DNA of 64,000 nt from a virus. Below are positions 13,612 through 38,954 of the stretch, piece by piece (within the stretch, counting starts at the first letter, position 1; the number at the start of each line of letters is the position of its first letter). Under the pieces are notes generated by a model, which was not told the origin of the DNA, made no database searches, and saw nothing but the letters and a program-made list of their open reading frames with translations. The position numbers were made by a program, and so were the translations under genes. Location: the IMG/VR virus record IMGVR_UViG_3300045988_176682; one strand, written 5' to 3'.

Positions 13612-16600
13612 TTAGCCTCCCATACTTACCTGTTTAATTAATTGTTTAATAGTGCCGTTTGTTTTTATATCCCGACTAACGGTAGCAATAATATTATCCG
13701 GGTCTTCTTGAGGAACTTGGTCAGGTGTAACAACCCATATATTCATTGTAGAATTTTTAGTTCCCGAACTCTTTTCTCCAGTCTGAGAAAGTCCCTCAGA
13801 AGTAGAAGTGAGAAAATCAGTGTTTCCGGCATTAAGATTAGAAAGAAAATCAGTACCGACAGCTTCAACGGCAGATTTTCTCATAACATATTCTCCGGGC
13901 ATTAATCTGGCATTAATCGAATCCCGGTTGGCTATTCCACCTTTTACAAGACCTCCATGAGACGCAGTGAAGAATCCGCCGGAACCGGTAACTCCTCCGG
14001 ATTCAACAACTCCTCCTCCAAATAAAGACCCTATCCCGCTAGAAACAAGACCAAGTAAACCTGTAGGGTTTCCAGAGCTGTCATCCCCACCGAATATTCT
14101 TGATAAGAATAATTTAGCGGTTTCACTATAGAATGTTTGTTCCATAGCTCTTAAAATTCCGTTGCACATATCCCTAAAGGCATCTCCGGTCTTTTCGGTA
14201 CCGTTAATAGCTACGTCAAAAAAGTTTGTAAGAGCCCCTTCGGCTTCATTTAATCCAGTGTACCAAGTCTGGCCAAAAAGCTCTCCAGTAGCGAAATTAA
14301 GGCCACTGTTGAAATAAGTATTCTGGCTCGCATATGAGTCTCTGGCATTTGTGAAAGAGTTTATAAATGCCTGATTAATATTTTCGTTAGACTCTAACTT
14401 ATTAATGGCATCAATAGTACCTTGTAACTCCAACATGGTACCTTCAAGTTCTTTAATCTGTACATCAAGGTCATTAATGGTTGAGGTATATTTTTCTTCT
14501 GCCCGAGCTGCTTCCTCGTAATTTTTCCTAGCTTCTTTTATCTGGTCAGCAGTAGCAGTTGTACTATTTCTAAGATTATTGAAAACTCTTTCAGTTTCTT
14601 CTAAATTTTGTTTTATCTCTCGATAATCTAAACTTTTAATCAGAGAAGTTCTACGTTCATTTAAGTCCTTCCTGGTTGTAAATGCTAAGTTATAACGAGT
14701 TTGATAATCTCTTCTTTGGTCTAATTCTATACGACTTCTTCCAGCGCTTTCTTCAATAGAAGCTCCCATCAGACCATATCCGGTAACTAAACCCTCCCGA
14801 TACCGATATCTGTTTTCTAAGTCAGCAATAGCTTTTTCATACTTTTTATTAATATCATCGATAGAAGAATTAAGAGCCTTGAAATAAGCATTTTGAGACT
14901 CGGCATTTCTGTCGAAAGTAGATTTTACTTTTTCTACCTCGGACTTAATTTGAGCTCTTTTATTTTTATAAGAAGCATTTAAATTAGCCAAATCTTCGTC
15001 AAAAGTAATTGCTTTTACAATATTTTTTCGACCCTCTTCTAAATCAGCTTTTTGTTTTAAGAAATCAAGCTCTGCTTCTCTCTCTAATCTTTTCTGTTCA
15101 GCATCCAAAGAAGATAGAGGCTTACTGGTTAAGGACCGGATACCTTCCTTAAACTTTCGGTCACTTTCTCTCTGAGCCTTCTTAGCTTCCTGTTTTATAA
15201 CTTCAGAATTAATATTTGAAAGTTCTGCTACAAACTCAACATAATTAGAGGTAATTTCCTGATAAATTTTACTCGTTTTATCAGTTAAAGCCTGTTTTAC
15301 TTTGTCGAGATTACCTTTTGTATAAGTATTAGCCAGAGACTGAATATCAGTTCCCATGAATTTAACCATATCTTCGATACTACCCTTTTGAAGATAATTC
15401 AAACGAGTCTCGGCAGCCATGGTTAATTCAGCTACTCCAGCAGAAATTTCTGCGCTCGAATAGTTACCACTGGTTGATAGGTCGGTTAACTTAGCTCTCA
15501 AAGCTGTCAAATCACTGGAAGTAACTTTCATTACTCCTTGAATTACAGCATCGAAAGATTTGTCCAACATATTTTGGAGGTTCTTCGAATTTTCCTGTTC
15601 GACAGTTTTCTGCTGGTCTAAGAACTTAGTGATTAAATCTCTTGTTTCCTCGGTTAAGCCAGAAGTAGAATCAGAAAGAAGTTTCATTAAATCATCAAGA
15701 AATTCTTGTCCTCTTTTCTCATATTGAGATTCAAGGGCAGCAATATAACTAGCGGATTCTTTTTCAGTAGCAGCATATCTTGAAGCTCTATAAGATTCAA
15801 TACCTGCACGCCCTGCTTTTACTCCATAAGAGGCAATATTACCATAAGGGTTTAATCTCTCAAGAGTAGATGCAACATCAATTCCACTCAAAAATTTTGT
15901 TACTGGGGACCGAGATTCTTCTTGTTGAACCCTTAAGCTGTTAGCAGTATTTTTATCAATAATTCCGTACTGTTGAAGAATACTCACTTGCTTATTTTTA
16001 TCCTCAACAGATAATCTATCCTGCATAACTCTTGCAGCCTCTCTGGTAAGGTCTCTGGCTGCCTTTGACGAACCTCTTGCGGCTTCGGCATTAAAATTAG
16101 CAAGTCTTATCTGAGCTTCTAATAATCTGTCAGCAAGTTCCTCAAAAGACTTAATGGGCTCCTTCATAATATCCGCAATTTGAGGGAATCTTGTAATAAT
16201 CATATTAACAAATTTATTTAACTCTTTTTGTCCTTCCGGACCAGAAAACTTTTCTCTCTGTACAAAAGCCCTTGAGATAACATTAGAAAAAGCATCATAA
16301 CTTTCTTGGGCCTTATTTATCTCTCCTTGTTTATCTTCCATAATAGAGGCAGTTTTTTCATAACTTCTGCCAACAGAATCTAAACTTTTATACAGACTAT
16401 AAGCAGCAGCAGCCACAGCACCAATAGCGGCAGCAGCTCCAACATAAGCTAAAAGAGACCCTCCAGCAAAAGCTGCGGCTAATCCTCCGGCAGCTGTTTT
16501 AGCATCTAAAAGACTCTTTCCCAGAACAATAATTTGCCCAATGGTCTTGGCTACTAAACCGACCGTGCCGGCTAACCCTGTACCGATTGCTAACATAGAG

Positions 16601-22872: not shown

Positions 22873-23319
22873 TTAATTGCCGGCTGGCTGATTTGATTTC
22901 CCAGCTTCCTCGTCACCAGAGGCATTACCGGCAGTGTTACCAGCAGGTTTAGCAGATTTCCCAGCTTCCTCGTCACCAGAGGCATTACCGGCAGTGTTAC
23001 CAGCAGGTTTAGCAGATTTTTCATCTTCCTGATTTTCCAGCAGCAGCTTAGAATTGAGGCTCTTCTCTTTCAAGAATTTAGCAACTGCCTTATTTTTATC
23101 TTTTTCAGAACTGTAGTATTTAACGAAAACTTCATCAGTACAGTTATCTTTCAAAGTTCCAAGAATGTTCAGACGTTTAGCTGAAACTGCGATATTCAAA
23201 CTAACAGACTCTTCCAGTACATAAGGTCTGTCTGGCATAGCCATTTGGCCTTTATGATTCAAATCAAAGAAACAACCGCCGTCTTTTACCTCGACAAGAA
23301 ATTTTGCTCTTTTTTCCAT
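22873..23319 (-). CDS. Hypothetical protein with C-terminal 20-aa tandem repeats
   Basis: 60-bp DNA repeat x2.3 encoding SAKPAGNTAGNASGDEEAGK. Confidence 0.5.
   Translation of the reverse strand: MEKRAKFLVEVKDGGCFFDLNHKGQMAMPDRPYVLEESVSLNIAVSAKRLNILGTLKDNCTDEVFVKYYSSEKDKNKAVAKFLKEKSLNSKLLLENQEDEKSAKPAGNTAGNASGDEEAGKSAKPAGNTAGNASGDEEAGKSNQPAGN
22898..23017. repeat. 60-bp direct tandem repeat (2 full copies plus partial), coding
   Basis: TTCCCAGCTTCCTCGTCACCAGAGGCATTACCGGCAGTGTTACCAGCAGGTTTAGCAGAT repeated. Confidence 0.8.
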
Positions 23320-27859: not shown

Positions 27860-29629
27860 TTAAAATAAACGATTTTCTCTTGAACTACTATATCCAATTA
27901 AATTTATATTGTCTATAACATTTTTAGATTTATCTTTCAAGGAGTTAGTAGGAACCGCAGTAATCAGACACTCTCTCGTTTCTCCTTTAGCTTCGCCTAA
28001 ACCTTCAACATAATAGATTTTTTCAGCTACCATAGCGTAAGCAGAAGCATGAAAAAAGTGGTCGGTACCGTTTATTTTTCTCCACTCCGGAGCTTTTCCG
28101 GCCTCATCATCTCTAATCATATCGCGGAAATGGAGGATAAGGGTGTCCAAAAGGTCTCCATAACCATAAAGAGACAATTTTTCTTGTGATATACCATCCA
28201 TCACGCGGTCGAGAGCAGCTGTGCGGCTTATGGTATAATAAATTACCTTCCCATCAATATCTTTCTTAGGCTCGGCATCTCGGAACCCGGCATAAATTAC
28301 AGGCATAATTTTACCATTGGACTCCTCAAAAATTTCGTCGGAAAGAGATGTATAAGGGTATCGGTCGATTGCTCCGGCAATAATTCGATACTTATCTTGG
28401 AAATATTTTATTCTTTCTTTTAACTTTTTATAATGTACCTGCTCGAATTTAACAAGAGCCCCTTCAACATATAAAGCAATATGGCAGACTAATCCCACGT
28501 CAATACCAATAAACATAGGCTTGTCTTTGGAAATGTCCGGAGTATTAGGAGATTGTGCCGCCTTACGGATTTTGAACTCTTCCATTCTAGAATTTCCACT
28601 CTCATAATCTTCTCCCAATACAGTATTAAATCCTCGACGGACTTTTCCCTTTTTAATATAATCAGCCATAGTCATAACAAGGTATTTAATGCTGAGAAGG
28701 GGGGAAGAGAAAGGACGAACCTGATAACCTCGGGAATGAAGACGACTTGGATACTTAGGAACCCATTCTCTTCGACTGTCATCATTCAAATCCAAAGGCT
28801 TGCCACACTTGGTACATCTTACATAAGCGGAATCAAGGTCGAGACCAACCGCTATTTTGGCATCAATATCGGTTATAACATTAATTTCTTTAGGCAAATC
28901 AGGAATACAAACACTGTTTAAGTCATATAGCGGAACCTGCTGATGATTACAATGAGGGCATTTATAGAAATACTCATGCTGGTCAGACCCCTCATACTCC
29001 AAGGACACCCCATAACCGGTAAAGGTTGGGGTACTGAACATTTGCTTTATCTTAAAATCAGAGTGTTGGTAGCGGGAATTAAACAGAGCAATGATTTCCA
29101 TATCTGACAAATCAAGCTCATCGTTAATAATCATATCGACCGGGGTGGACGTAGCGTCAGCTTCACTGTTACCGGCAATATAAAGAAAGGAATCTCCCAG
29201 CTGCATAATGGAATTATTACGGACTTCCTTTCCCTCTTTTCCGCCAAACTTAGGAAAATCTCTATCGAGGATGGGTCTGATACGAGTCTTACTGTTTCGG
29301 TCTCTCATCTCGGTAGTTGGGAAAGAATACAAGGCATTAGTTCCCGGGTTTTGTATCAAGAAGCCAAGGGTTTTTCGAATTTGTCCCTCGGTAAGACCAA
29401 CTTGGGATAGCTTTTTACAGCAAAGATTGGGGTGCATGTCGTCCAATATCTGTCTCTGGAACTCGTGTCTCTTAAAAGAAAAAGGCTGTCCTTTTAATGT
29501 GGTATTATTACAAATCCATTCGGCCATGGATGTATCTTTATTAATGGACTCGATTTTTTCAACAATGCTTTTTATGTAGGGGTTAGTATTCCAATCCATA
29601 TCGGTCTCCTTGCTTAAGAGATAAATCAA
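27860..29629 (-). CDS. Terminase large subunit (GpA-like)
   Basis: 589 aa. Internal CPHC...CTKC zinc-finger-like motif typical of GpA-family terminases. First gene of the late arm. Confidence 0.75.
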   Translation of the reverse strand: MIYLLSKETDMDWNTNPYIKSIVEKIESINKDTSMAEWICNNTTLKGQPFSFKRHEFQRQILDDMHPNLCCKKLSQVGLTEGQIRKTLGFLIQNPGTNALYSFPTTEMRDRNSKTRIRPILDRDFPKFGGKEGKEVRNNSIMQLGDSFLYIAGNSEADATSTPVDMIINDELDLSDMEIIALFNSRYQHSDFKIKQMFSTPTFTGYGVSLEYEGSDQHEYFYKCPHCNHQQVPLYDLNSVCIPDLPKEINVITDIDAKIAVGLDLDSAYVRCTKCGKPLDLNDDSRREWVPKYPSRLHSRGYQVRPFSSPLLSIKYLVMTMADYIKKGKVRRGFNTVLGEDYESGNSRMEEFKIRKAAQSPNTPDISKDKPMFIGIDVGLVCHIALYVEGALVKFEQVHYKKLKERIKYFQDKYRIIAGAIDRYPYTSLSDEIFEESNGKIMPVIYAGFRDAEPKKDIDGKVIYYTISRTAALDRVMDGISQEKLSLYGYGDLLDTLILHFRDMIRDDEAGKAPEWRKINGTDHFFHASAYAMVAEKIYYVEGLGEAKGETRECLITAVPTNSLKDKSKNVIDNINLIGYSSSRENRLF

Positions 29630-30658: not shown

Positions 30659-33124
30659 ATGGGAATTTTTAGCGAAAACGCCCCTAAATTATGGGCTTTA
30701 GGGCTACCGGTTATGCCTCTCTACCCCAAAGAGAAGAATCCTATCGTTCCGTCTTGGCAGCAGTTCGCAGAACGGATGCCAACTCCGGACGAACAGGCTT
30801 TCTGGCTTAAAAACTATGCCAACGGTAACATTGGCCTCCCTCTCGGTCCGCAGTCAGGCTGTGTAGCTCTTGATATTGATACCGAGAATGACGAACTCTT
30901 CAAATTAGTTTGCGGCCTTGTTCCGCAATCCCCGTGGAATCGTATCGGTTCTCACGGAAAGGTGATGCTTTTCAAGTACACCGGCCAAAAAACTTTCCGT
31001 ATCAAAGATATTGACGGCGTAACTATTTGCGAGCTGCTTTCAGCCCGTACACAGGTTGTTATTCCTCCGTCAATCCACCCCAAAACTCAGAAACCTTACT
31101 ATTCGGATACTAATCTGGAAGATGTAATAAAAAATCTGCCGGTACTTGACCAGAACATTGAGAACATTCTTCGTCAATCTCTCGAAGATTTTGGCGTAAC
31201 CCTGTCTCACTCAGGCTGGACAAGAACCACGGATTACATTTCCAGAGGAAGCCGTGACGTAAAAATGACTTCTATGGCCGGTTTCTTTGCCAACGGGATT
31301 ACCAGAGGAGAGCTCTCGGTTAAGGAAGCCATTGCAAGAATGTACGCTTGGTATTCTTCCTGCGTGGAACAGATTGCCGGAGATGATGTCGACATTGATA
31401 AAGGCATCAGAAACATGATTTCTTTCCTCGTGCAAGACGTTATCGGGCCAAAGAAGAAGGTTCTGCCGCGAGGGTGGGACGAGGGCCTCTCCGAGGAAGA
31501 AAAAACCCAAATGGGGCTCAATTTTAATACCGAGCTCGAGGAGTGGGACTATAATCGCTTAAAAGAATATCTTTACGAGCAATTCAACCTTCATGCAGAG
31601 GATTCTGTCCAGCGCTCGGAAGCAATCGAATATATCTTATGCCGAATCGCCCGGTCTCCGAGCCTGACATCGCTTGACGAGGACCGAATCCTGAAATATA
31701 TCAGCCAAACTTGCAAAAACATCCAGCTTTCTGCCCTCCGGAAGCGCTTAAACGAGTTAAAAACAGGCGATTTAAGAGGAACCAACCACACAGAAATCGC
31801 CCGTGCCGTTATCGAGGAAGTCCGCCGGTCAACGGATATGCACTTCTTCCAAGACAAATTGTGGCGGTGGAACGGCTCGAACTGGGAATCGCAGCCGGAA
31901 CAAGAGCTGCTTGAAATGATAGCCAACAACTTCGGTCATCTGCCGGCCGCAACTCGAGCCACAGACCATGCAGGTATCATCAGAATCTTAAAAAATATCG
32001 TACCGCAGGGGTTAACCGTTAACGGAGTTCCTCAGGCAAACGGCATTAACTTCGCCAACGGGTTCGTCGATATGGAAGGAATCCTCCATCCACACAATCC
32101 GGCCTATGGTATGACCTACACTCTTCCTTTCCGGTATATGCCGGAACTGGGAACATTAGACCATTGTCCTCGTTTTAAGCAGTTCCTTACCGATGTTTGG
32201 GGAGAAGAAAAAGACTTCACCCAACGGGTTCGGGCTCTTCAAGAGGTAATGGCCTCCACTTTCTTCGGTATCGGCACCTCTTTCTCACGAGCCGTCCTTC
32301 TTTATGGTATTGCCGGTTCGGGCAAATCCCAGTTGTTGGAAATCGTGAAAAACCTGCTGCCGCAGAAAGTGGTATCTTATATCCCGCCCTATGACTTTGA
32401 CGACAGATTTAAGGTGACGGAACTTTCCCGTTCCATCATGAACATCTGCGGAGAGTTACACCGGGATAAAAAGATACCGTCCGCCGCTTTCAAGCAAATC
32501 ATTGACAGCTCCGAACTGTCTGGCCAATATAAAAGCCGCCCCTTGTTTGATTTCCGCCCGAAAGCGACGCATTGGTTTGCCAGCAACCACCTTCCGAAGT
32601 CGGATGACGATACCGAAGGCTTTAACCGTCGGTGGTTAATCCTGTCGTTTAACCATCCGGTTTCTTCGGATAAAAAAGTCCGTAATATTGGCGATATAAT
32701 CGTCGCTGAGGAGAGAGAAGCCATTGCGGCCTGGGTAGTATCGGTGATAAACGAGCTGCGTAAGCAGAGCGAATATTCGATACCCGACAGCCACTATAGC
32801 TTTGTCTCGGAGATGGCTTCTGAAAACGATACACTTTTTTTCTTTCTCATCTCGGACAAGGGGCCGAGAAAGGTATTGAACGACGACGGGAGCTTATCAG
32901 AAAGTACGAAAATACACGCCGACAAACTCTACGAAGAATACACCGCCTTTTGCTACTCTACGGCTCATGCCCGGCCTGTGGGGTTGAAAAGATACTCTCA
33001 GAGGCTGAGGGAATTGTCGATTTTTATGGGATTCAAAGTGGACAGTTTGACGGTGTATGGACTCACAATGGACAAGGGCCAGGCTACAATGGCGAAGAGT
33101 GTACCATTGATAAGAAACTTTTAG
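30659..33124 (+). CDS. DNA primase/helicase: N-terminal Prim-Pol domain plus D5/P4-type SF3 helicase
   Basis: 821 aa. N-terminal bifunctional primase-polymerase-like region. Walker A GIAGSGKSQLLEIV and Walker B in the C-terminal half. Confidence 0.75.
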   Translation: MGIFSENAPKLWALGLPVMPLYPKEKNPIVPSWQQFAERMPTPDEQAFWLKNYANGNIGLPLGPQSGCVALDIDTENDELFKLVCGLVPQSPWNRIGSHGKVMLFKYTGQKTFRIKDIDGVTICELLSARTQVVIPPSIHPKTQKPYYSDTNLEDVIKNLPVLDQNIENILRQSLEDFGVTLSHSGWTRTTDYISRGSRDVKMTSMAGFFANGITRGELSVKEAIARMYAWYSSCVEQIAGDDVDIDKGIRNMISFLVQDVIGPKKKVLPRGWDEGLSEEEKTQMGLNFNTELEEWDYNRLKEYLYEQFNLHAEDSVQRSEAIEYILCRIARSPSLTSLDEDRILKYISQTCKNIQLSALRKRLNELKTGDLRGTNHTEIARAVIEEVRRSTDMHFFQDKLWRWNGSNWESQPEQELLEMIANNFGHLPAATRATDHAGIIRILKNIVPQGLTVNGVPQANGINFANGFVDMEGILHPHNPAYGMTYTLPFRYMPELGTLDHCPRFKQFLTDVWGEEKDFTQRVRALQEVMASTFFGIGTSFSRAVLLYGIAGSGKSQLLEIVKNLLPQKVVSYIPPYDFDDRFKVTELSRSIMNICGELHRDKKIPSAAFKQIIDSSELSGQYKSRPLFDFRPKATHWFASNHLPKSDDDTEGFNRRWLILSFNHPVSSDKKVRNIGDIIVAEEREAIAAWVVSVINELRKQSEYSIPDSHYSFVSEMASENDTLFFFLISDKGPRKVLNDDGSLSESTKIHADKLYEEYTAFCYSTAHARPVGLKRYSQRLRELSIFMGFKVDSLTVYGLTMDKGQATMAKSVPLIRNF

Positions 33125-33148: not shown

Positions 33149-33367
33149 ATGACAAATAACAACCGTATTTACAGAAGGGACCAATTACGGTTCCTTACTG
33201 CTGACGTTAACCGTATCTTAGCCAAAGCCAGGGAAATAGAGAAAGATTTCCCGGACGATGACAGGGACGGCGCTAAGGAAGATTTAGGTCTTGCAATCCA
33301 ACATCTTGACAAAGCGTTTTATCATTTAAGCTGGACGTTAGCCGGAGAAATGGACCCATGGGATTAG
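33149..33367 (+). CDS. Hypothetical protein
   Basis: 72-aa ORF. Confidence 0.45.
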   Translation: MTNNNRIYRRDQLRFLTADVNRILAKAREIEKDFPDDDRDGAKEDLGLAIQHLDKAFYHLSWTLAGEMDPWD

Positions 33368-33972
33368 AAGCTATGATGACGAGAATGCAATCTGATTTAT
33401 TAGAAAAATATACCATTTACAGCAAAGACAAAAAGCTTAAGCAAATAAACTGGCCGATACCGGTAAACGTTGAGGGGATAACTCCCCCCAAGACGTTTGC
33501 CTTGAAAGGTCAAAAAATGACCTTTAAGCTATACTCGACCAAGAAAGCCAAGGCGTTTATCGAATGGGCTCTTACCGAGCTGTCTTTAAGCAAGAAGGAA
33601 TTTTACAGCACTTGCCGGAGAATGGACGTTGTTAAGAAACGGTCACTAATTGTTTATGTGCTAAGGTGTGAATTTGGCGTTCCCTGTGTACAGGCCGGGG
33701 AGATGATAGGCAGAAACGTATCGCAAATTCCTTATCTTCAGATGGTTGCCATAAGGGAATATGGCGAGGAGCTAAAAGAAGTAGGAGACCTTATTAAGAA
33801 ATGGAGAGAATATGATGCAGAACCCCGATGCCAACAACAACGCCAACAGCAATGCCAACAGCAATGCCAACAACACCAGCAACACCAACAGCAATGCCAA
33901 AAGGATAAAGATTGTTCACAAAGACGGAAAAACCTATACCTATCCTCTAAGCAAAGTCCCCTCGTGGCTTAA
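33358..33972 (+). CDS. HTH protein, DnaA C-terminal domain-like (paralogue 1); 3' end uncertain (Q-rich extension overlaps next gene)
   Basis: RSLIVYVLRCEFGVPCVQAGEMIGRNVSQIPYLQ resembles DnaA domain IV. Paralogous to 33812..34396. Confidence 0.45.
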   Translation: MGLEAMMTRMQSDLLEKYTIYSKDKKLKQINWPIPVNVEGITPPKTFALKGQKMTFKLYSTKKAKAFIEWALTELSLSKKEFYSTCRRMDVVKKRSLIVYVLRCEFGVPCVQAGEMIGRNVSQIPYLQMVAIREYGEELKEVGDLIKKWREYDAEPRCQQQRQQQCQQQCQQHQQHQQQCQKDKDCSQRRKNLYLSSKQSPLVA

Positions 33973-34396
33973 GCATAAGGGAGAGTCTACCCAAAGGTAT
34001 GACTGGCCGATTCCGATTGGCGAGAAGAGAGGGCCATGGACGGACACGCCTCCTGAGGTATATTATGTAAAGAATCAGGAGATACGGAAAAAGAGAGGGA
34101 AAGCTGAAACTCTGGGGTGGAAGGATTGGGTGGGAGACTTCATAAGATTTACTTGTGAAAGAGAAGGTGTAGAACTCTATAATATTCTTTCTCCGGACAA
34201 GCATTCCCGTTTTGTAATAGTGAGAGCCCTTATTGTGTATGCGCTCAGGTGCAGGGGTGTTTCACGATGGCAGTTGGGGAAAATGTTACACAGAGACGGG
34301 GCTACTATACAATACTTACAGGGAAAAGCGGTAGCGTTATTTGGTGACAAACTGAAAGAAGTCAGCAAGTTACTTGAGGAGTGGGATGATAGATAA
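33812..34396 (+). CDS. HTH protein, DnaA C-terminal domain-like (paralogue 2) with N-terminal (NANS)n low-complexity region
   Basis: RALIVYALRCRGVSRWQLGKMLHRDGATIQYLQ. RBS GGAGAG lies upstream. Shares WPIPI and ...KEV..L.EEWDD with paralogue 1. Confidence 0.5.
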   Translation: MMQNPDANNNANSNANSNANNTSNTNSNAKRIKIVHKDGKTYTYPLSKVPSWLKHKGESTQRYDWPIPIGEKRGPWTDTPPEVYYVKNQEIRKKRGKAETLGWKDWVGDFIRFTCEREGVELYNILSPDKHSRFVIVRALIVYALRCRGVSRWQLGKMLHRDGATIQYLQGKAVALFGDKLKEVSKLLEEWDDR

Positions 34397-34459
34397 TCCT
34401 TCTAACCCTCCTAATCCCGGAGTTACCCGGAGAGAGCCCAGAAATCGGATTTGGAAAGA

Positions 34460-34483
34460 CCCTTCCTTTTGGAAGGGTTTTTT
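34460..34483 (+). terminator. Intrinsic terminator
   Basis: CCCTTCC(TTTT)GGAAGGG followed by T6. Confidence 0.6.
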
Positions 34484-34492
34484 ATTGGGTAC

Positions 34493-34756
34493 GGGAAAGG
34501 GAAAAGATAAAAGGGTCACAGTTAGGTTACTGGAAGGTGTCCTAATATGTCCTATCCCGAAAAATTTCGGAATCGGATTCGGGAAAGGGAAAAGATAAAA
34601 GGGTCACAGTTAGGTTACTGGAAGGTGTCCTAATATGTCCTATCCCGAAAAATTTCGGAATCGGATTCGGGAAAGGGAAAAGATAAAAGGGTCACAGTTA
34701 GGTTACTGGAAGGTGTCCTAATATGTCCTATCCCGAAAAATTTCGGAATCGGATTC
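34493..34756. repeat. Three perfect tandem copies of an 88-bp non-coding repeat (candidate iteron/origin or centromere-like array)
   Basis: Identical units starting at 34493, 34581 and 34669 (GGGAAAGGGAAAAGATAAAAGGGTCACAGTTAGG...CGGAATCGGATTC). Period is not a multiple of 3. Confidence 0.85.
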
Positions 34757-34960
34757 GGGAGGGCCCTGTCCCCGGTTCCCTTGCCGATTCTCTCTCAAAA
34801 AAAACATACTACCCTTGCACTAAGTCTTTGATTTTACTTATTTACACCCTCTTTGTTCAATTTTTTATATTTATATGTTGTCAAGCTTTTTTATTAATGT
34901 TACCTTACCACTATAAACAGCGTTTTTAACATTCATATTTTACACACAGAGGATAATACC

Positions 34961-35329
34961 ATGACAAATATAGCAACCTTAAACCTGCAAACAATTAACC
35001 AGTCAGACGATTTTATTGCCAACGCAAAAAAAGCACTCCGCGCCGATATGGTTAACAGCCGCAAATTGACGCTTGACAGCATCACAGCAGTTGCCGCCCT
35101 ATCCTATTCTTTGTTTATCCATAATAACCCCGACTCCGATTTCTCGATATATCGGGTAAACTCAACAGAGATTAGCGAGTCCAGATTGCGCCAACAACTA
35201 ATCAACTCTATATTTAACAAGCAGCAGTTGGAAGAATTGCAGAGCTCTGAAGGGCGAGTCATATATAACAAAGTGTGCGCCGGCATGATTATCTTTAAAG
35301 ACAACCTTAACAGATTTCATGCCCTTTGA
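34961..35329 (+). CDS. Hypothetical protein
   Basis: 122-aa ORF with RBS. Confidence 0.5.
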   Translation: MTNIATLNLQTINQSDDFIANAKKALRADMVNSRKLTLDSITAVAALSYSLFIHNNPDSDFSIYRVNSTEISESRLRQQLINSIFNKQQLEELQSSEGRVIYNKVCAGMIIFKDNLNRFHAL

Positions 35330-35446
35330 CACAATACCAAAACCAAATATAACTATCTTATCTCAAATAAAACTATCTATCATACTTTAAAAATAAACAA
35401 ATATAAATTTAATAAAAATAATATTTTTAACTAGGGAGAAAAAGCA

Positions 35447-35983
35447 ATGTTAAATTTAACGATTAAAAACCCGAGACCGGGAACATTTACGAACAAACAT
35501 ATCATGATTGATATTGAATTGAACGGCAAGTTTATTTCAACTTACGAATGCAATCCGTTTTATCAAATGGATACAAAAGGCGAAATTTTCAATCAAATAG
35601 TAAATGCTATAAGTTGGTCAAATTCGAAGTACGATACTGGAACCGCTGCAAGATTATTTAAGATTTATTGTGGTATGGAGTGTGGTAAAGATTTATATTA
35701 CGATACCGTAAAATCTTTCATGAATATAATCCTTAAAACCTTAAAGGATAAGATTTTGGATTTAATTGACCTTAAAGATGTTGAAAGATGTTTGTTTAAT
35801 GATGCCGAGTGTTTTGAATCCGGTTCCGATTTCGAGGACTTTTGCTTTAACCTCGGTTATGATACCGACAGCATTAAAGCTTTAAAAGTTTATGAGGGCT
35901 GTAAGGAAATCTATCTGAAACTGGTTCAAACTATCGGTTCAGAGAAATTGAGAGAAGGCATTGAATATTATCGGGAGAATTAG
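35447..35983 (+). CDS. Hypothetical protein
   Basis: 178-aa ORF with RBS AGGGAGA. Its 5' end is duplicated at 37752. Confidence 0.55.
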   Translation: MLNLTIKNPRPGTFTNKHIMIDIELNGKFISTYECNPFYQMDTKGEIFNQIVNAISWSNSKYDTGTAARLFKIYCGMECGKDLYYDTVKSFMNIILKTLKDKILDLIDLKDVERCLFNDAECFESGSDFEDFCFNLGYDTDSIKALKVYEGCKEIYLKLVQTIGSEKLREGIEYYREN

Positions 35984-36613
35984 CCATATATATTTTTGAG
36001 CGGGATGAGGTTATGAACAGATTATAATCCGGATTCAGAATTATTTAGGGATACTTTACCACGGGTATGGGAGGTTTTAGGTTCGGAGTGTCTCCGAACG
36101 GGGAGAAAGGAGAAAAATTTTAAATCGGGATATGAATCGATTCATAAAAAAGTTAATTTTAGACTAATTTGACGGAAGGAGATTTCAACTACAGGTAGGG
36201 AGATAGGTGAAAAAGCACGCAAAATTTTAACTCAAATGATATTCCTCTCTTGAATATATTTATATTGACATTTGACAAATTTTGAATAAAATATTTCCAG
36301 AATCACCGGATTATAAACAAAACGTCGAATTACGTCAAAATTTCTCTATTTGTCTTTTTTGTCAATCATTCATATTTTAATAAATTATTGATTCTATTAT
36401 ATATTTCTTCTTCTCTATTATTTCTCACTTCGTTTAGAATCTGAGTTTTATTTTTAGACAAAATAATTTTGTATAAAAAAAATAACATAATAGGGTAAAA
36501 ATAAAAACGATGTTTGACTCTTGTAAGGAAAGATTTTATTTTGTAAAAACAAAGACATCTCGTTAGATGATTATCTGGACAAAATTTTAGTCTACATAAA
36601 AAGGAAAAAAATA

Positions 36614-36835
36614 ATGATTTTACAACCAGTTGTTAAAAAAAGCGCTTTAAATTTAAACAAAATTGAACAAAACAACAAATTTAACCGGGTTTTCTGGAAT
36701 CCGAGATATGAATCGATTCATAATCACGAATCAATTCAAGTCAAAAAGCCAAACCCTATTGTAACCGGATTATTCGTCCTGTTAACCGTGGCTGTTGTCT
36801 GGTTTATTATGTTTATGGTTTTCATCATTTTTTGA
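36614..36835 (+). CDS. Small membrane protein (C-terminal TM)
   Basis: 73 aa. TM segment LFVLLTVAVVWFIMFMVFIIF. Confidence 0.45.
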   Translation: MILQPVVKKSALNLNKIEQNNKFNRVFWNPRYESIHNHESIQVKKPNPIVTGLFVLLTVAVVWFIMFMVFIIF

Positions 36836-38245: not shown

Positions 38246-38954
38246 GATGAAAACCAACGGCAAATATAGAGCAGCTATTTATATCCCTTTCTTTACGGGA
38301 TTTTATGGTACAGTTTTCGAATCCGATGATGATATAGTTAGCACTATCTTTACAGAGGATATAAAAGAGCGCTTAGAAATCAAAAACCTTAATGATGACA
38401 AATTGGAAGATGCTATCGAAAGGGTTTCGGTTTGGGATTATTTCGATAATAAAGAATATGAGAAAGATATCGGAGAGCAGTTCGTTTATTGGTTAAACAA
38501 TGAGATTTCCGATATTGAAATCTTAAAAGGTTTCGGATTTGAATATGAATCGATTCATCATCCAAAAGAATATAATTTTACAACAGATAAAATCGAGGGC
38601 TACTTAAACGTCCCGGCCGGAGGGATTGACCGAATTATAAAAGAAATCGAAAGCGATGAAGATTTCGATGAATATTGCAAGGAAAATTTCTCTTCCTATT
38701 CTGGTTTTGTTTCCTTTATTCCAAATAATAAAAAAGATTTTTTGGAAACCTTAAAGGAATATGTGAAATGTGATGATGAAGTCAATTTTAGTCGAAATTT
38801 CAGTCTTATGGTTAGGTATCTTATTGAAAGGGAATTATCTGAACGTGATATTGAGAATATAACCCAGAATACCTTAGAAAACGTTTGGGAGGGAAATTAT
38901 TGTAACAGGGATGGTTACGATAATGAATTGATAACGGTTTATAATCACTTATAA
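38223..38954 (+). CDS. Hypothetical acidic protein
   Basis: 243-aa ORF. Likely start at 38247 (MKTNGKY). Confidence 0.5.
   Translation: MRKMRRNKMKTNGKYRAAIYIPFFTGFYGTVFESDDDIVSTIFTEDIKERLEIKNLNDDKLEDAIERVSVWDYFDNKEYEKDIGEQFVYWLNNEISDIEILKGFGFEYESIHHPKEYNFTTDKIEGYLNVPAGGIDRIIKEIESDEDFDEYCKENFSSYSGFVSFIPNNKKDFLETLKEYVKCDDEVNFSRNFSLMVRYLIERELSERDIENITQNTLENVWEGNYCNRDGYDNELITVYNHL

Follow-up and report, generated by a model that had tools for sequence, protein, structure and literature searches.

A young 88-bp copy-number polymorphism near a predicted terminal-repeat boundary in a siphovirus-like human-gut phage

The 64,000-nt stretch of phage DNA analysed here (the window) carries three perfect tandem copies of an 88-bp unit shortly after a primase-helicase gene and two genes coding DnaA-like proteins. 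An array of this kind in such a position raises the question of whether it is a functional device, for instance a set of origin iterons, a centromere-like site or a protein-titrating array as proposed in the first-pass annotation of the locus, or the product of a DNA region in which repeats arise readily. We favor, with a probability of roughly 0.6, the reading that the array is a very young hypermutable VNTR situated in a repeat hot spot beside a predicted terminal-repeat boundary.

The array and its genomic surroundings

The window has the organization of a siphovirus-like genome. The structural genes and a large terminase of the lambda gpA type are encoded by the minus strand up to position 29629, while the plus strand codes, in this order, for an HTH_17 protein, the conserved unknown protein g147, the primase-helicase, a 72-aa ORF, and the proteins that we name par1 and par2. 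A DEAD-box helicase, exonucleases and a family-A DNA polymerase are encoded farther downstream. The presence of a primase gene before the array, recognized initially from the sequence, was confirmed by Pfam and PHROG matches: the gene (30659–33124, plus strand), which is the anchor gene of the family, codes for a Prim-Pol/D5_N/DUF5906 primase-helicase of the SF3 type. The encoded protein is 41–43% identical to the primases of Achromobacter phage JWF, Xylophilus phage Lumi and Caulobacter phage Seuss, whose terminase/primase synteny is the same, and many relatives of ~80 kb are found in IMG/VR. This JWF/Seuss/Lumi-like family is widespread and consists mostly of uncultured siphoviruses of ~75–85 kb.

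The genes par1 (33358–33972, plus strand) and par2 (33812–34396, plus strand) code for paralogous proteins (30% identity). The 194-aa par2 is composed of an N/S-rich amino-terminus and a DnaA domain IV-like carboxyl-terminal domain (~residues 100–194), whose AF2 model has a pLDDT of 70–89 for residues 101–194. The best nine PDB matches of par2 in Foldseek are all DnaA DNA-binding domains, with a target-normalised TM of 0.74–0.79 for isolated domains. Bac_DnaA_C is the top Pfam match of both paralogues, below threshold in each case (E = 0.016 for par2), and a profile search started with par2 reaches true DnaA (P0025) and Bac_DnaA_C proteins. The initial description of the pair as HTH paralogues resembling DnaA domain IV was thus well founded, and small proteins consisting only of a DnaA domain IV exist as tandem paralogues in the replication module of a gut phage. 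Homologues of par2 form only two clusters among 5.8 billion proteins, all from human-gut assemblies, and no relatives of the protein were found in IMG/VR.

The last ~50 codons of par1 overlap par2 in another reading frame. A second VNTR, with a 12-bp repeat (ATGCCAACAGCA; 33828–33900), lies in this 160-nt overlap, ~600 bp from the array. It codes for a Q/C-rich tail in the par1 frame and for the N/S-rich amino-terminus in the par2 frame, and its copy number differs among isogenic strains, yielding par2 proteins of 190, 194 or 198 aa. The homology of par1 to par2 stops before the overlap; the par1 tail may be a read-through extension, or a past fusion or frameshift may have involved the two genes.

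The operon formed by the primase, par1 and par2 genes is closed by an intrinsic terminator at ~34454–34486 (plus strand; 13-bp stem, −22 kcal/mol, z = −4.1, followed by a U run), as anticipated for the DNA just upstream of the array. A terminator is found at the equivalent place in the distant relative L106. TRF delimits the tandem array to 34492–34760, with a period of 88, 3.1 copies (3.06 perfect units), 100% matches and a score of 538. Its three identical units occupy 34492–34579, 34580–34667 and 34668–34755 (the coordinates first given were off by 1 nt, which is immaterial) and are followed by a 5-nt partial fourth copy, CGGGA, at the end of the periodic region (34756–34760). A chance origin of the array is impossible. 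Comparison of the flanks of single- and multi-copy alleles (see below) identified CGGGA as a 5-bp microhomology present at both edges of the duplicated 88-bp segment: its left copy (34492–34496) is found in the context GGGTA/CGGGAAAGGG and its right copy (34756–34760) in the context GGATT/CGGGAGGGCC, where the slash marks the edge. An old degenerate partial copy of the unit 3′ end (TCCTAATCCCGGAG...AGAAATCGGATTTGGAAAG) is found at 34405–34452. The repeat search detected in it the pair formed by 34443–34463 and 34747–34767 (81%), and the remainder was recognized by inspection.

Each unit carries an imperfect 28-bp palindrome, TCCTATCCCGAAA-AA-TTTCGGAATCGGA (34550–34577, 34638–34665 and 34726–34753). 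The palindrome core GAATCnGATTC (GAATCNGATTC) is confined to the three units within the window, where 0.2 occurrences are expected, and the left arm is not strictly conserved in the relative L084. No extra copies of the unit k-mers or of the palindrome were found beyond chance elsewhere in the window. A distinct perfect palindrome, (A)TGAATCGATTCA(T), is present in the AT-rich early region of the window at 36133–36144, 36709–36720 and 38546–38557 (0.2 expected) and four to five times in the syntenic segment 7750–8146 of L106. This palindrome probably serves an early-gene regulator as operator. The half-site GAATC recurs in the 88-bp unit, with 1 bp of extra spacing.

The period of 88 is not divisible by 3 and, as noted from the outset, a credible ORF is absent. 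Only short ORFs run over the array: 34374–34598 (plus strand, 74 aa, TTG start), 34723–34929 (plus strand, 68 aa) and 34370–34519 (minus strand, 49 aa). Gene callers place an ORF of 89–95 aa across the terminator and the unit in relatives. This coding reading was rejected because the nine substitutions between the unit and its L083 orthologue (positions read by eye) show no codon periodicity, because the ORF includes the terminator, and because an 88-bp insertion shifts the frame. A structured RNA was rejected as well: no Rfam family or tRNA was found at the array, and the predicted folds of the unit (z-scores of −0.9 to −2.1) and of the conserved block described below (−1.4 and −0.9) are not clearly better than those of shuffled sequences. 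The AT-rich DNA at 34820–34960 doubles as the putative promoter region of the next gene (34961–35329). Inspection identified there a promoter-like sequence, TTGTCA-N17-TACCTT, and a Shine-Dalgarno sequence (34878–34960, plus strand) that the promoter scan did not list; the first hexamer is TTGACA in L083, L084 and L106.

Copy number and sequence turnover in close relatives

The same phage was found in several other human-gut assemblies. A single copy of the unit between identical flanks is present in ERZ27250519, ERR636384, ERR14118101 and ERR13966499, and two copies are present in one sample, SAMEA2784483 (two-copy contigs L090/L098). Contigs from three more samples, ERR636383, ZHAN23-2 and SAMEA2784482, break at the array. 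Among the broken contigs, that of SAMEA2784482 (L087) ends exactly 55 nt into copy 2, which we take as a graph overlap of k = 55; L096 starts exactly at the unit start and L093 starts 3 nt into the unit. Alleles with one, two and three copies differ by 0–1 SNP over ~6.4 kb when the two VNTRs are set aside, bearing out the early deduction that perfect identity of the units implies recent expansion. The diverged relatives L083 and L084 and the more distant L106 have one copy each. The single-copy state is the most frequent and the ancestral one.

The locus therefore has the attributes of a VNTR: a copy number that varies between near-identical genomes, identical copies with microhomology at their edges, and single-copy outgroups. 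The triplication is real, recent and strain-specific. The search for the unit in related phages, suggested in the first-pass annotation, recovered it in the assemblies of the same phage and in L083, L084 and L106, but the multi-copy state is not kept. Variation of copy number, named there as part of what would speak against a function, was found among near-identical strains, which carry one, two or three copies.

It is highly improbable that the tandem copies were made by the assembler, an artefact that had been foreseen as a possible refutation. Most assemblies do have one copy, and perfect tandem repeats are handled badly by short-read assemblers, the exact number (two or three) being uncertain. 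However, the unit-unit junction GGATT/CGGGAAAGGG requires real reads and is present independently in the window, in L087 and in L090/L098. Furthermore, the positions of the contig breaks (L096 at the unit start, L093 3 nt into the unit, L087 55 nt into copy 2) are those that a true repeat would cause in an assembly graph. The graph also explains the contig ends of this phage (L087 55 nt into copy 2 and L096 at the unit start) when these are considered as physical genome ends, a reading that was rejected. Searches beyond the clade were negative: megablast of the locus against 50,697 phage records and an exact search of the unit 3′ part in IMG/VR gave no match, and a scan of GTDB representative genomes for a clue to the host found nothing.

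Conservation of the region is uneven. Identity to L083/L084 is 96–100% up to the par2 stop codon and falls from 34397 to ~36050, a span similar to the direct terminal repeats (DTRs) of relatives. When the window is aligned to L106, coding sequences show 47–75% identity and the intergenic region 53% overall, with a phylogenetic footprint block at 34724–34818 that includes a 28-bp core (25/28 positions identical) and a 14-bp core (13/14). The core blocks are also found in L083, L084, L110 and L111. This conserved block starts in the last ~35 bp of the unit and extends ~58 bp beyond the array; it is whole only at the last copy. Within the unit, the last ~35 bp are conserved while the 5′ ~50 bp are poorly conserved.

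L110 and L111 belong to the same lineage and have the same conserved block. The carboxyl-terminus of par2, readable in L110, is near-identical to that of the window. Nevertheless, the position of the 88-bp array is occupied by an unrelated array with a 12-bp unit (TAGTATAATGAA in the TRF register), present in at least 8.6 copies in L111 and ~2.5 copies in L110. In L111 it ends ~21 nt before motif 1 of the conserved block (see below). The same position has about ten degenerate hexamers in L106. That the arrays at a single site are unrelated in sequence while the adjacent proteins are near-identical argues against sequence-specific iterons.

The DNA past the array shows its own turnover. A mosaic replacement spans 35320–36000 when compared to L083 (11290–12400) and L084, identity being back to 97–100% at ~36050. 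The gene at 34961–35329 (122 aa) corresponds to a protein of 236–240 aa in L083/L084; in the window, an unrelated gene coding 178 aa (35447–35983, phrog_4273) has taken the place of its C-terminal part and of the DNA that follows. The 236-aa-type gene of L111 features, just past the hot spot, a perfect in-frame tandem duplication (57 bp × 2.1, at 904–1024), which indicates that young duplications are frequent in this ~2-kb region.

A conserved element and an array hot spot in the phage family

The conserved block contains a composite element that is conserved in the phage family (34735–34812, plus strand, as delimited by the regex match). Two motifs were defined by alignment: motif 1, GAAAAATTT (34735–34743, plus strand), which is also found in units 1 and 2, and motif 2, an A-tract followed by CATACTACCCTT (34797–34816, plus strand). 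The element is complete only after the last unit. Its pattern, [CG]AAAAWTTT, ~50 nt and A-tract-N4-8-TAC (in a fuller form AAAAAG..GTAC(C/T)CCTT), matched 12 times in 1.21 Mb searched on both strands (69 sources). All 12 matches are located 158–1611 bp past the primase gene; eight of them come from loci that had no part in defining the pattern. The matches other than the window are in L001 (10109), L002 (8847), L003 (9046), L006 (5379), L017 (12867), L020 (12796), L026 (4751), L035 (12616), L043 (12953), L050 (12495) and L065 (13101, minus strand). The evidence that the window element matches those of Seuss and Lumi consists of short AT-rich motifs and the distance between them.

Long DTRs were published for Seuss and Lumi (PMC4591317, PMC9959647). 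DTR lengths determined here by identity of prefix and suffix are 1748 bp for Seuss, 2298 bp for Lumi, 1466 bp for JWF and 1542 bp for phage 2-1. The inner DTR boundary lies inside the composite element in all four phages, just downstream of the primase operon. Counted from the first base of motif 1, the DTR starts after 31 nt in Seuss and Lumi, 30 nt in 2-1 and 17 nt in JWF, so that the element predicts the boundary within ~1 nt in three of the four cultured phages. The metagenomic contig L007 ends ~30 nt after motif 1. By the same spacing, the terminal repeat of the phage studied here is predicted to begin at ~34765/34766, ~5 nt past the periodic end of the array; none of the retrieved contigs of this phage ends at the predicted boundary. 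The element could be used to orient and trim metagenomic genomes and to predict the termini of uncultured relatives.

The large terminase gene (27860–29629, minus strand) codes for an ATPase domain that matches Pfam GpA_ATPase, and the gene upstream of it is divergent. In spite of this terminase type, the cultured relatives carry DTRs of 1.5–2.3 kb instead of cohesive ends. No small terminase gene was found upstream of the large terminase, and g147 (phrog_30421) has no PDB or TerS match.

A census of tandem arrays (period ≥ 10, ≥ 85% matches) across 67 loci of the family gave 0.33–0.47 arrays per kb in the 0–4 kb after the primase gene versus 0.015–0.06 in the 7 kb before it, a density 6–10 times higher. 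Short perfect direct repeats occur at the syntenic site in many relatives, Seuss having five copies of GACCCGCGAGCGG, and in Seuss, Lumi, L006 and L052 a distance of 61–80 nt separates the array end from motif 1. This recurrence of position could reflect selection rather than mutational bias. Searches of the IMG/VR family loci with par1, par2 and most downstream genes gave no match (tblastn, E ≤ 1e-4), and these genes therefore cannot explain a family-wide feature. The arrays of the hot spot systematically break short-read assemblies and may report how genome ends form.

Other repeats were observed in the family and in the window. The contigs L024, L025, L044, L047 and L004 end inside perfect tandem arrays with 12–30-bp units a few kb after the primase gene. 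L005, the closest IMG/VR relative (primase 57% identical), has a 1.6-kb non-coding region after its primase module where four copies of a 16-bp palindrome core, TTCCAACGTTGGAA (GTTCCAACGTTGGAAC in three of them), are accompanied by long A/T runs and 14-bp tandem repeats (15014–15932); the sequence is unlike that of the window but the architecture is alike. Within the window, a 9-bp repeat at 1–59 (GCTCCGGCT × 6.6, perfect) and a 60-bp repeat at 22895–23030 (× 2.3, 96%), inside the ORF 22873–23319, are probably coding repeats of structural genes.

Origin of the array, alternative readings and known systems

The favored reading can be described as a sequence of events. The starting material would be an 88-bp segment of the spacer that separates the terminator of the primase/DnaA-IV-like operon from the operon that follows. 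A first duplication could have resulted from slipped-strand or illegitimate pairing at the 5-bp CGGGA, and the third copy from slippage or unequal recombination between 88-bp units; slippage is the mechanism that we infer. The array would be a by-product of a repeat-prone region adjoining the site of genome-end formation, placed immediately upstream of the ~80-bp conserved element and overlapping motif 1. Its copy number possibly modulates the boundary region. An effect of copy number on binding by the DnaA-IV-like proteins, the primase-helicase or the terminase is also possible, the unit palindrome being unique in the window. The array is best read neither as a dedicated multi-copy protein-binding device nor as a conserved set of origin iterons. 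The initial proposals of origin iterons, a centromere or a titrating array found no support, the multi-copy state not being conserved and a 12-bp array replacing the unit in L110/L111. In itself the array is ordinary: a young copy-number polymorphism and not a new replication or partition device.

A less likely reading, which nevertheless deserves attention, is that the composite element is the end-forming signal (terminase nick or DTR boundary) and that end formation itself creates the tandem-array hot spot. A nicked 3′ end beside ...GGATTCGGGA would slip back onto the upstream microhomology before strand-displacement synthesis, and arrays would be continually born and lost at the boundary. 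If so, formation of the phage terminal repeat would be tied to a predictable, fast-evolving VNTR, and the threefold presence of motif 1 in the three-copy allele could lead to heterogeneous ends or change packaging. In its simplest form, this reading is weakened by array edges that differ between members of the clade. Use of the array right edge as a general mark of the nick site was ruled out, as the L111 array stops ~21 nt before motif 1.

We regard as unlikely that the array is a replication origin in which the units act as iterons or sites for par1/par2 or for the carboxyl-terminal domain of the primase-helicase, and in which the downstream AT-rich stretch unwinds. The position directly after the primase-helicase and the two DnaA-DBD-like genes, the array-unique palindrome in each unit, the AT-rich segment 34820–34960 and the short direct repeats found at the syntenic site in relatives such as Seuss would all suit an origin. 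Yet a single copy is usual in this phage and its close relatives, as opposed to a conserved multi-copy state, and an 88-bp unit is much longer than typical iterons. The poor conservation of the unit 5′ ~50 bp and its replacement by the unrelated 12-bp array in L110, beside a near-identical par2, also speak against specific binding sites. Moreover, par1/par2 are confined to a small clade while the hot spot is family-wide. DnaA boxes are absent from the array and not enriched in the window: no TTATCCACA-like box was found in 34300–34960, and the window has 23 matches versus 18.6 expected. The GC skew turns at ~28–32 kb, away from the array, but this is weak evidence and the skew follows the transcription direction here.

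Recognition of the array during DNA packaging, by a small terminase or an end-processing protein, with extra copies altering packaging efficiency, appears rather unlikely. The lambda gpA type of the large terminase would fit, as would the contact of the array with the element in which Seuss, Lumi, 2-1 and JWF have their DTR boundary, the ~5 nt that separate its periodic end at 34760 from the predicted boundary, and the 61–80 nt spacing between arrays and motif 1 in four relatives. Against it, strains whose proteins are near-identical have arrays of unrelated sequence, the search for a small terminase (g147 included) was negative, the position of the array relative to a genome end is a prediction in this phage, and the L111 array, with its ~21-nt distance to motif 1, shows that the geometry is not fixed within the clade.

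A copy-number switch for the downstream operon, in which 88-bp steps would move or multiply a regulator site relative to the promoter of gene 34961–35329, is very doubtful. The array does lie ~120–390 bp upstream of TTGTCA-N17-TACCTT, at a locus that is hypermutable among isogenic strains, and the palindrome core GAATC-n-GATTC is similar to the half-sites of the ATGAATCGATTCAT operator, of which the early region has three copies; but the promoter scan called none here and the half-site spacing is 1 bp off that of the operator. Finally, a partition (centromere-like) site or a protein-titrating array of a plasmid-prophage is scarcely credible: identical direct repeats that each have an inverted repeat recall F sopC in outline, but the multi-copy state is not conserved, a scan of 20 ORFs (Pfam/PHROGs; a set that covers part of the small ORFs) detected neither a ParA/ParB- or ParM/ParR-type pair linked to the array nor an integrase or plasmid functions, and the phage codes for a family-A DNA polymerase, a helicase and an exonuclease of its own, as in a lytic-type siphovirus.

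Comparison to known systems places these readings in context; a literature search on P4 crr and on repeats at concatemer junctions found nothing usable. The F sopC/parS site shares with the array identical tandem units that each have an inverted repeat. It differs in that no partition genes were found here among the ORFs scanned, in a genome of the lytic type, and in that the copy number is not conserved. The P4 ori and crr have octamer iterons within ~120-bp repeats, which are conserved multi-copy binding sites, and Streptococcus thermophilus phages of the Sfi21 type have a non-coding origin downstream of the primase gene. They resemble the present locus in having non-coding direct repeats immediately 3′ of a P4-alpha-like primase-helicase gene. 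However, their sites are conserved in multiple copies whereas here one copy is usual and the repeated part is the least conserved.

The cos site of lambda combines the cosN nick site with the cosB R-site repeats bound by gpNu1. The GpA_ATPase-type TerL and the repeats beside an end-forming site (predicted here) are common to both. Lambda has 12-nt cohesive ends versus the long DTRs of the relatives of our phage, no Nu1-like small terminase was found here, and the array sequences vary among strains with identical proteins. The T7 concatemer junction has the SRL and SRR arrays that flank its 160-bp terminal repeat, with ~12 imperfect copies of ~7-bp units. To our knowledge, the function of the SRL/SRR arrays is still unclear. 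As in the present locus, where the DTR is predicted, direct-repeat arrays are found just outside a direct terminal repeat, beside the end-forming site. The terminase and replication of T7 are unrelated, the DTRs of the relatives are 1.5–2.3 kb long, and the units here measure 12–88 bp and are often perfect.

With contingency-locus VNTRs of bacteria and duplication mutants of phages, the array shares perfect copies, a variable copy number, a short repeat at the edges and single-copy outgroups, and a second VNTR is found nearby. Ordinary slippage VNTRs differ in that the array described here lies in a family-wide hot spot beside a conserved element, a bias that may be mechanistic (nicking or strand displacement) or selected and not random alone.
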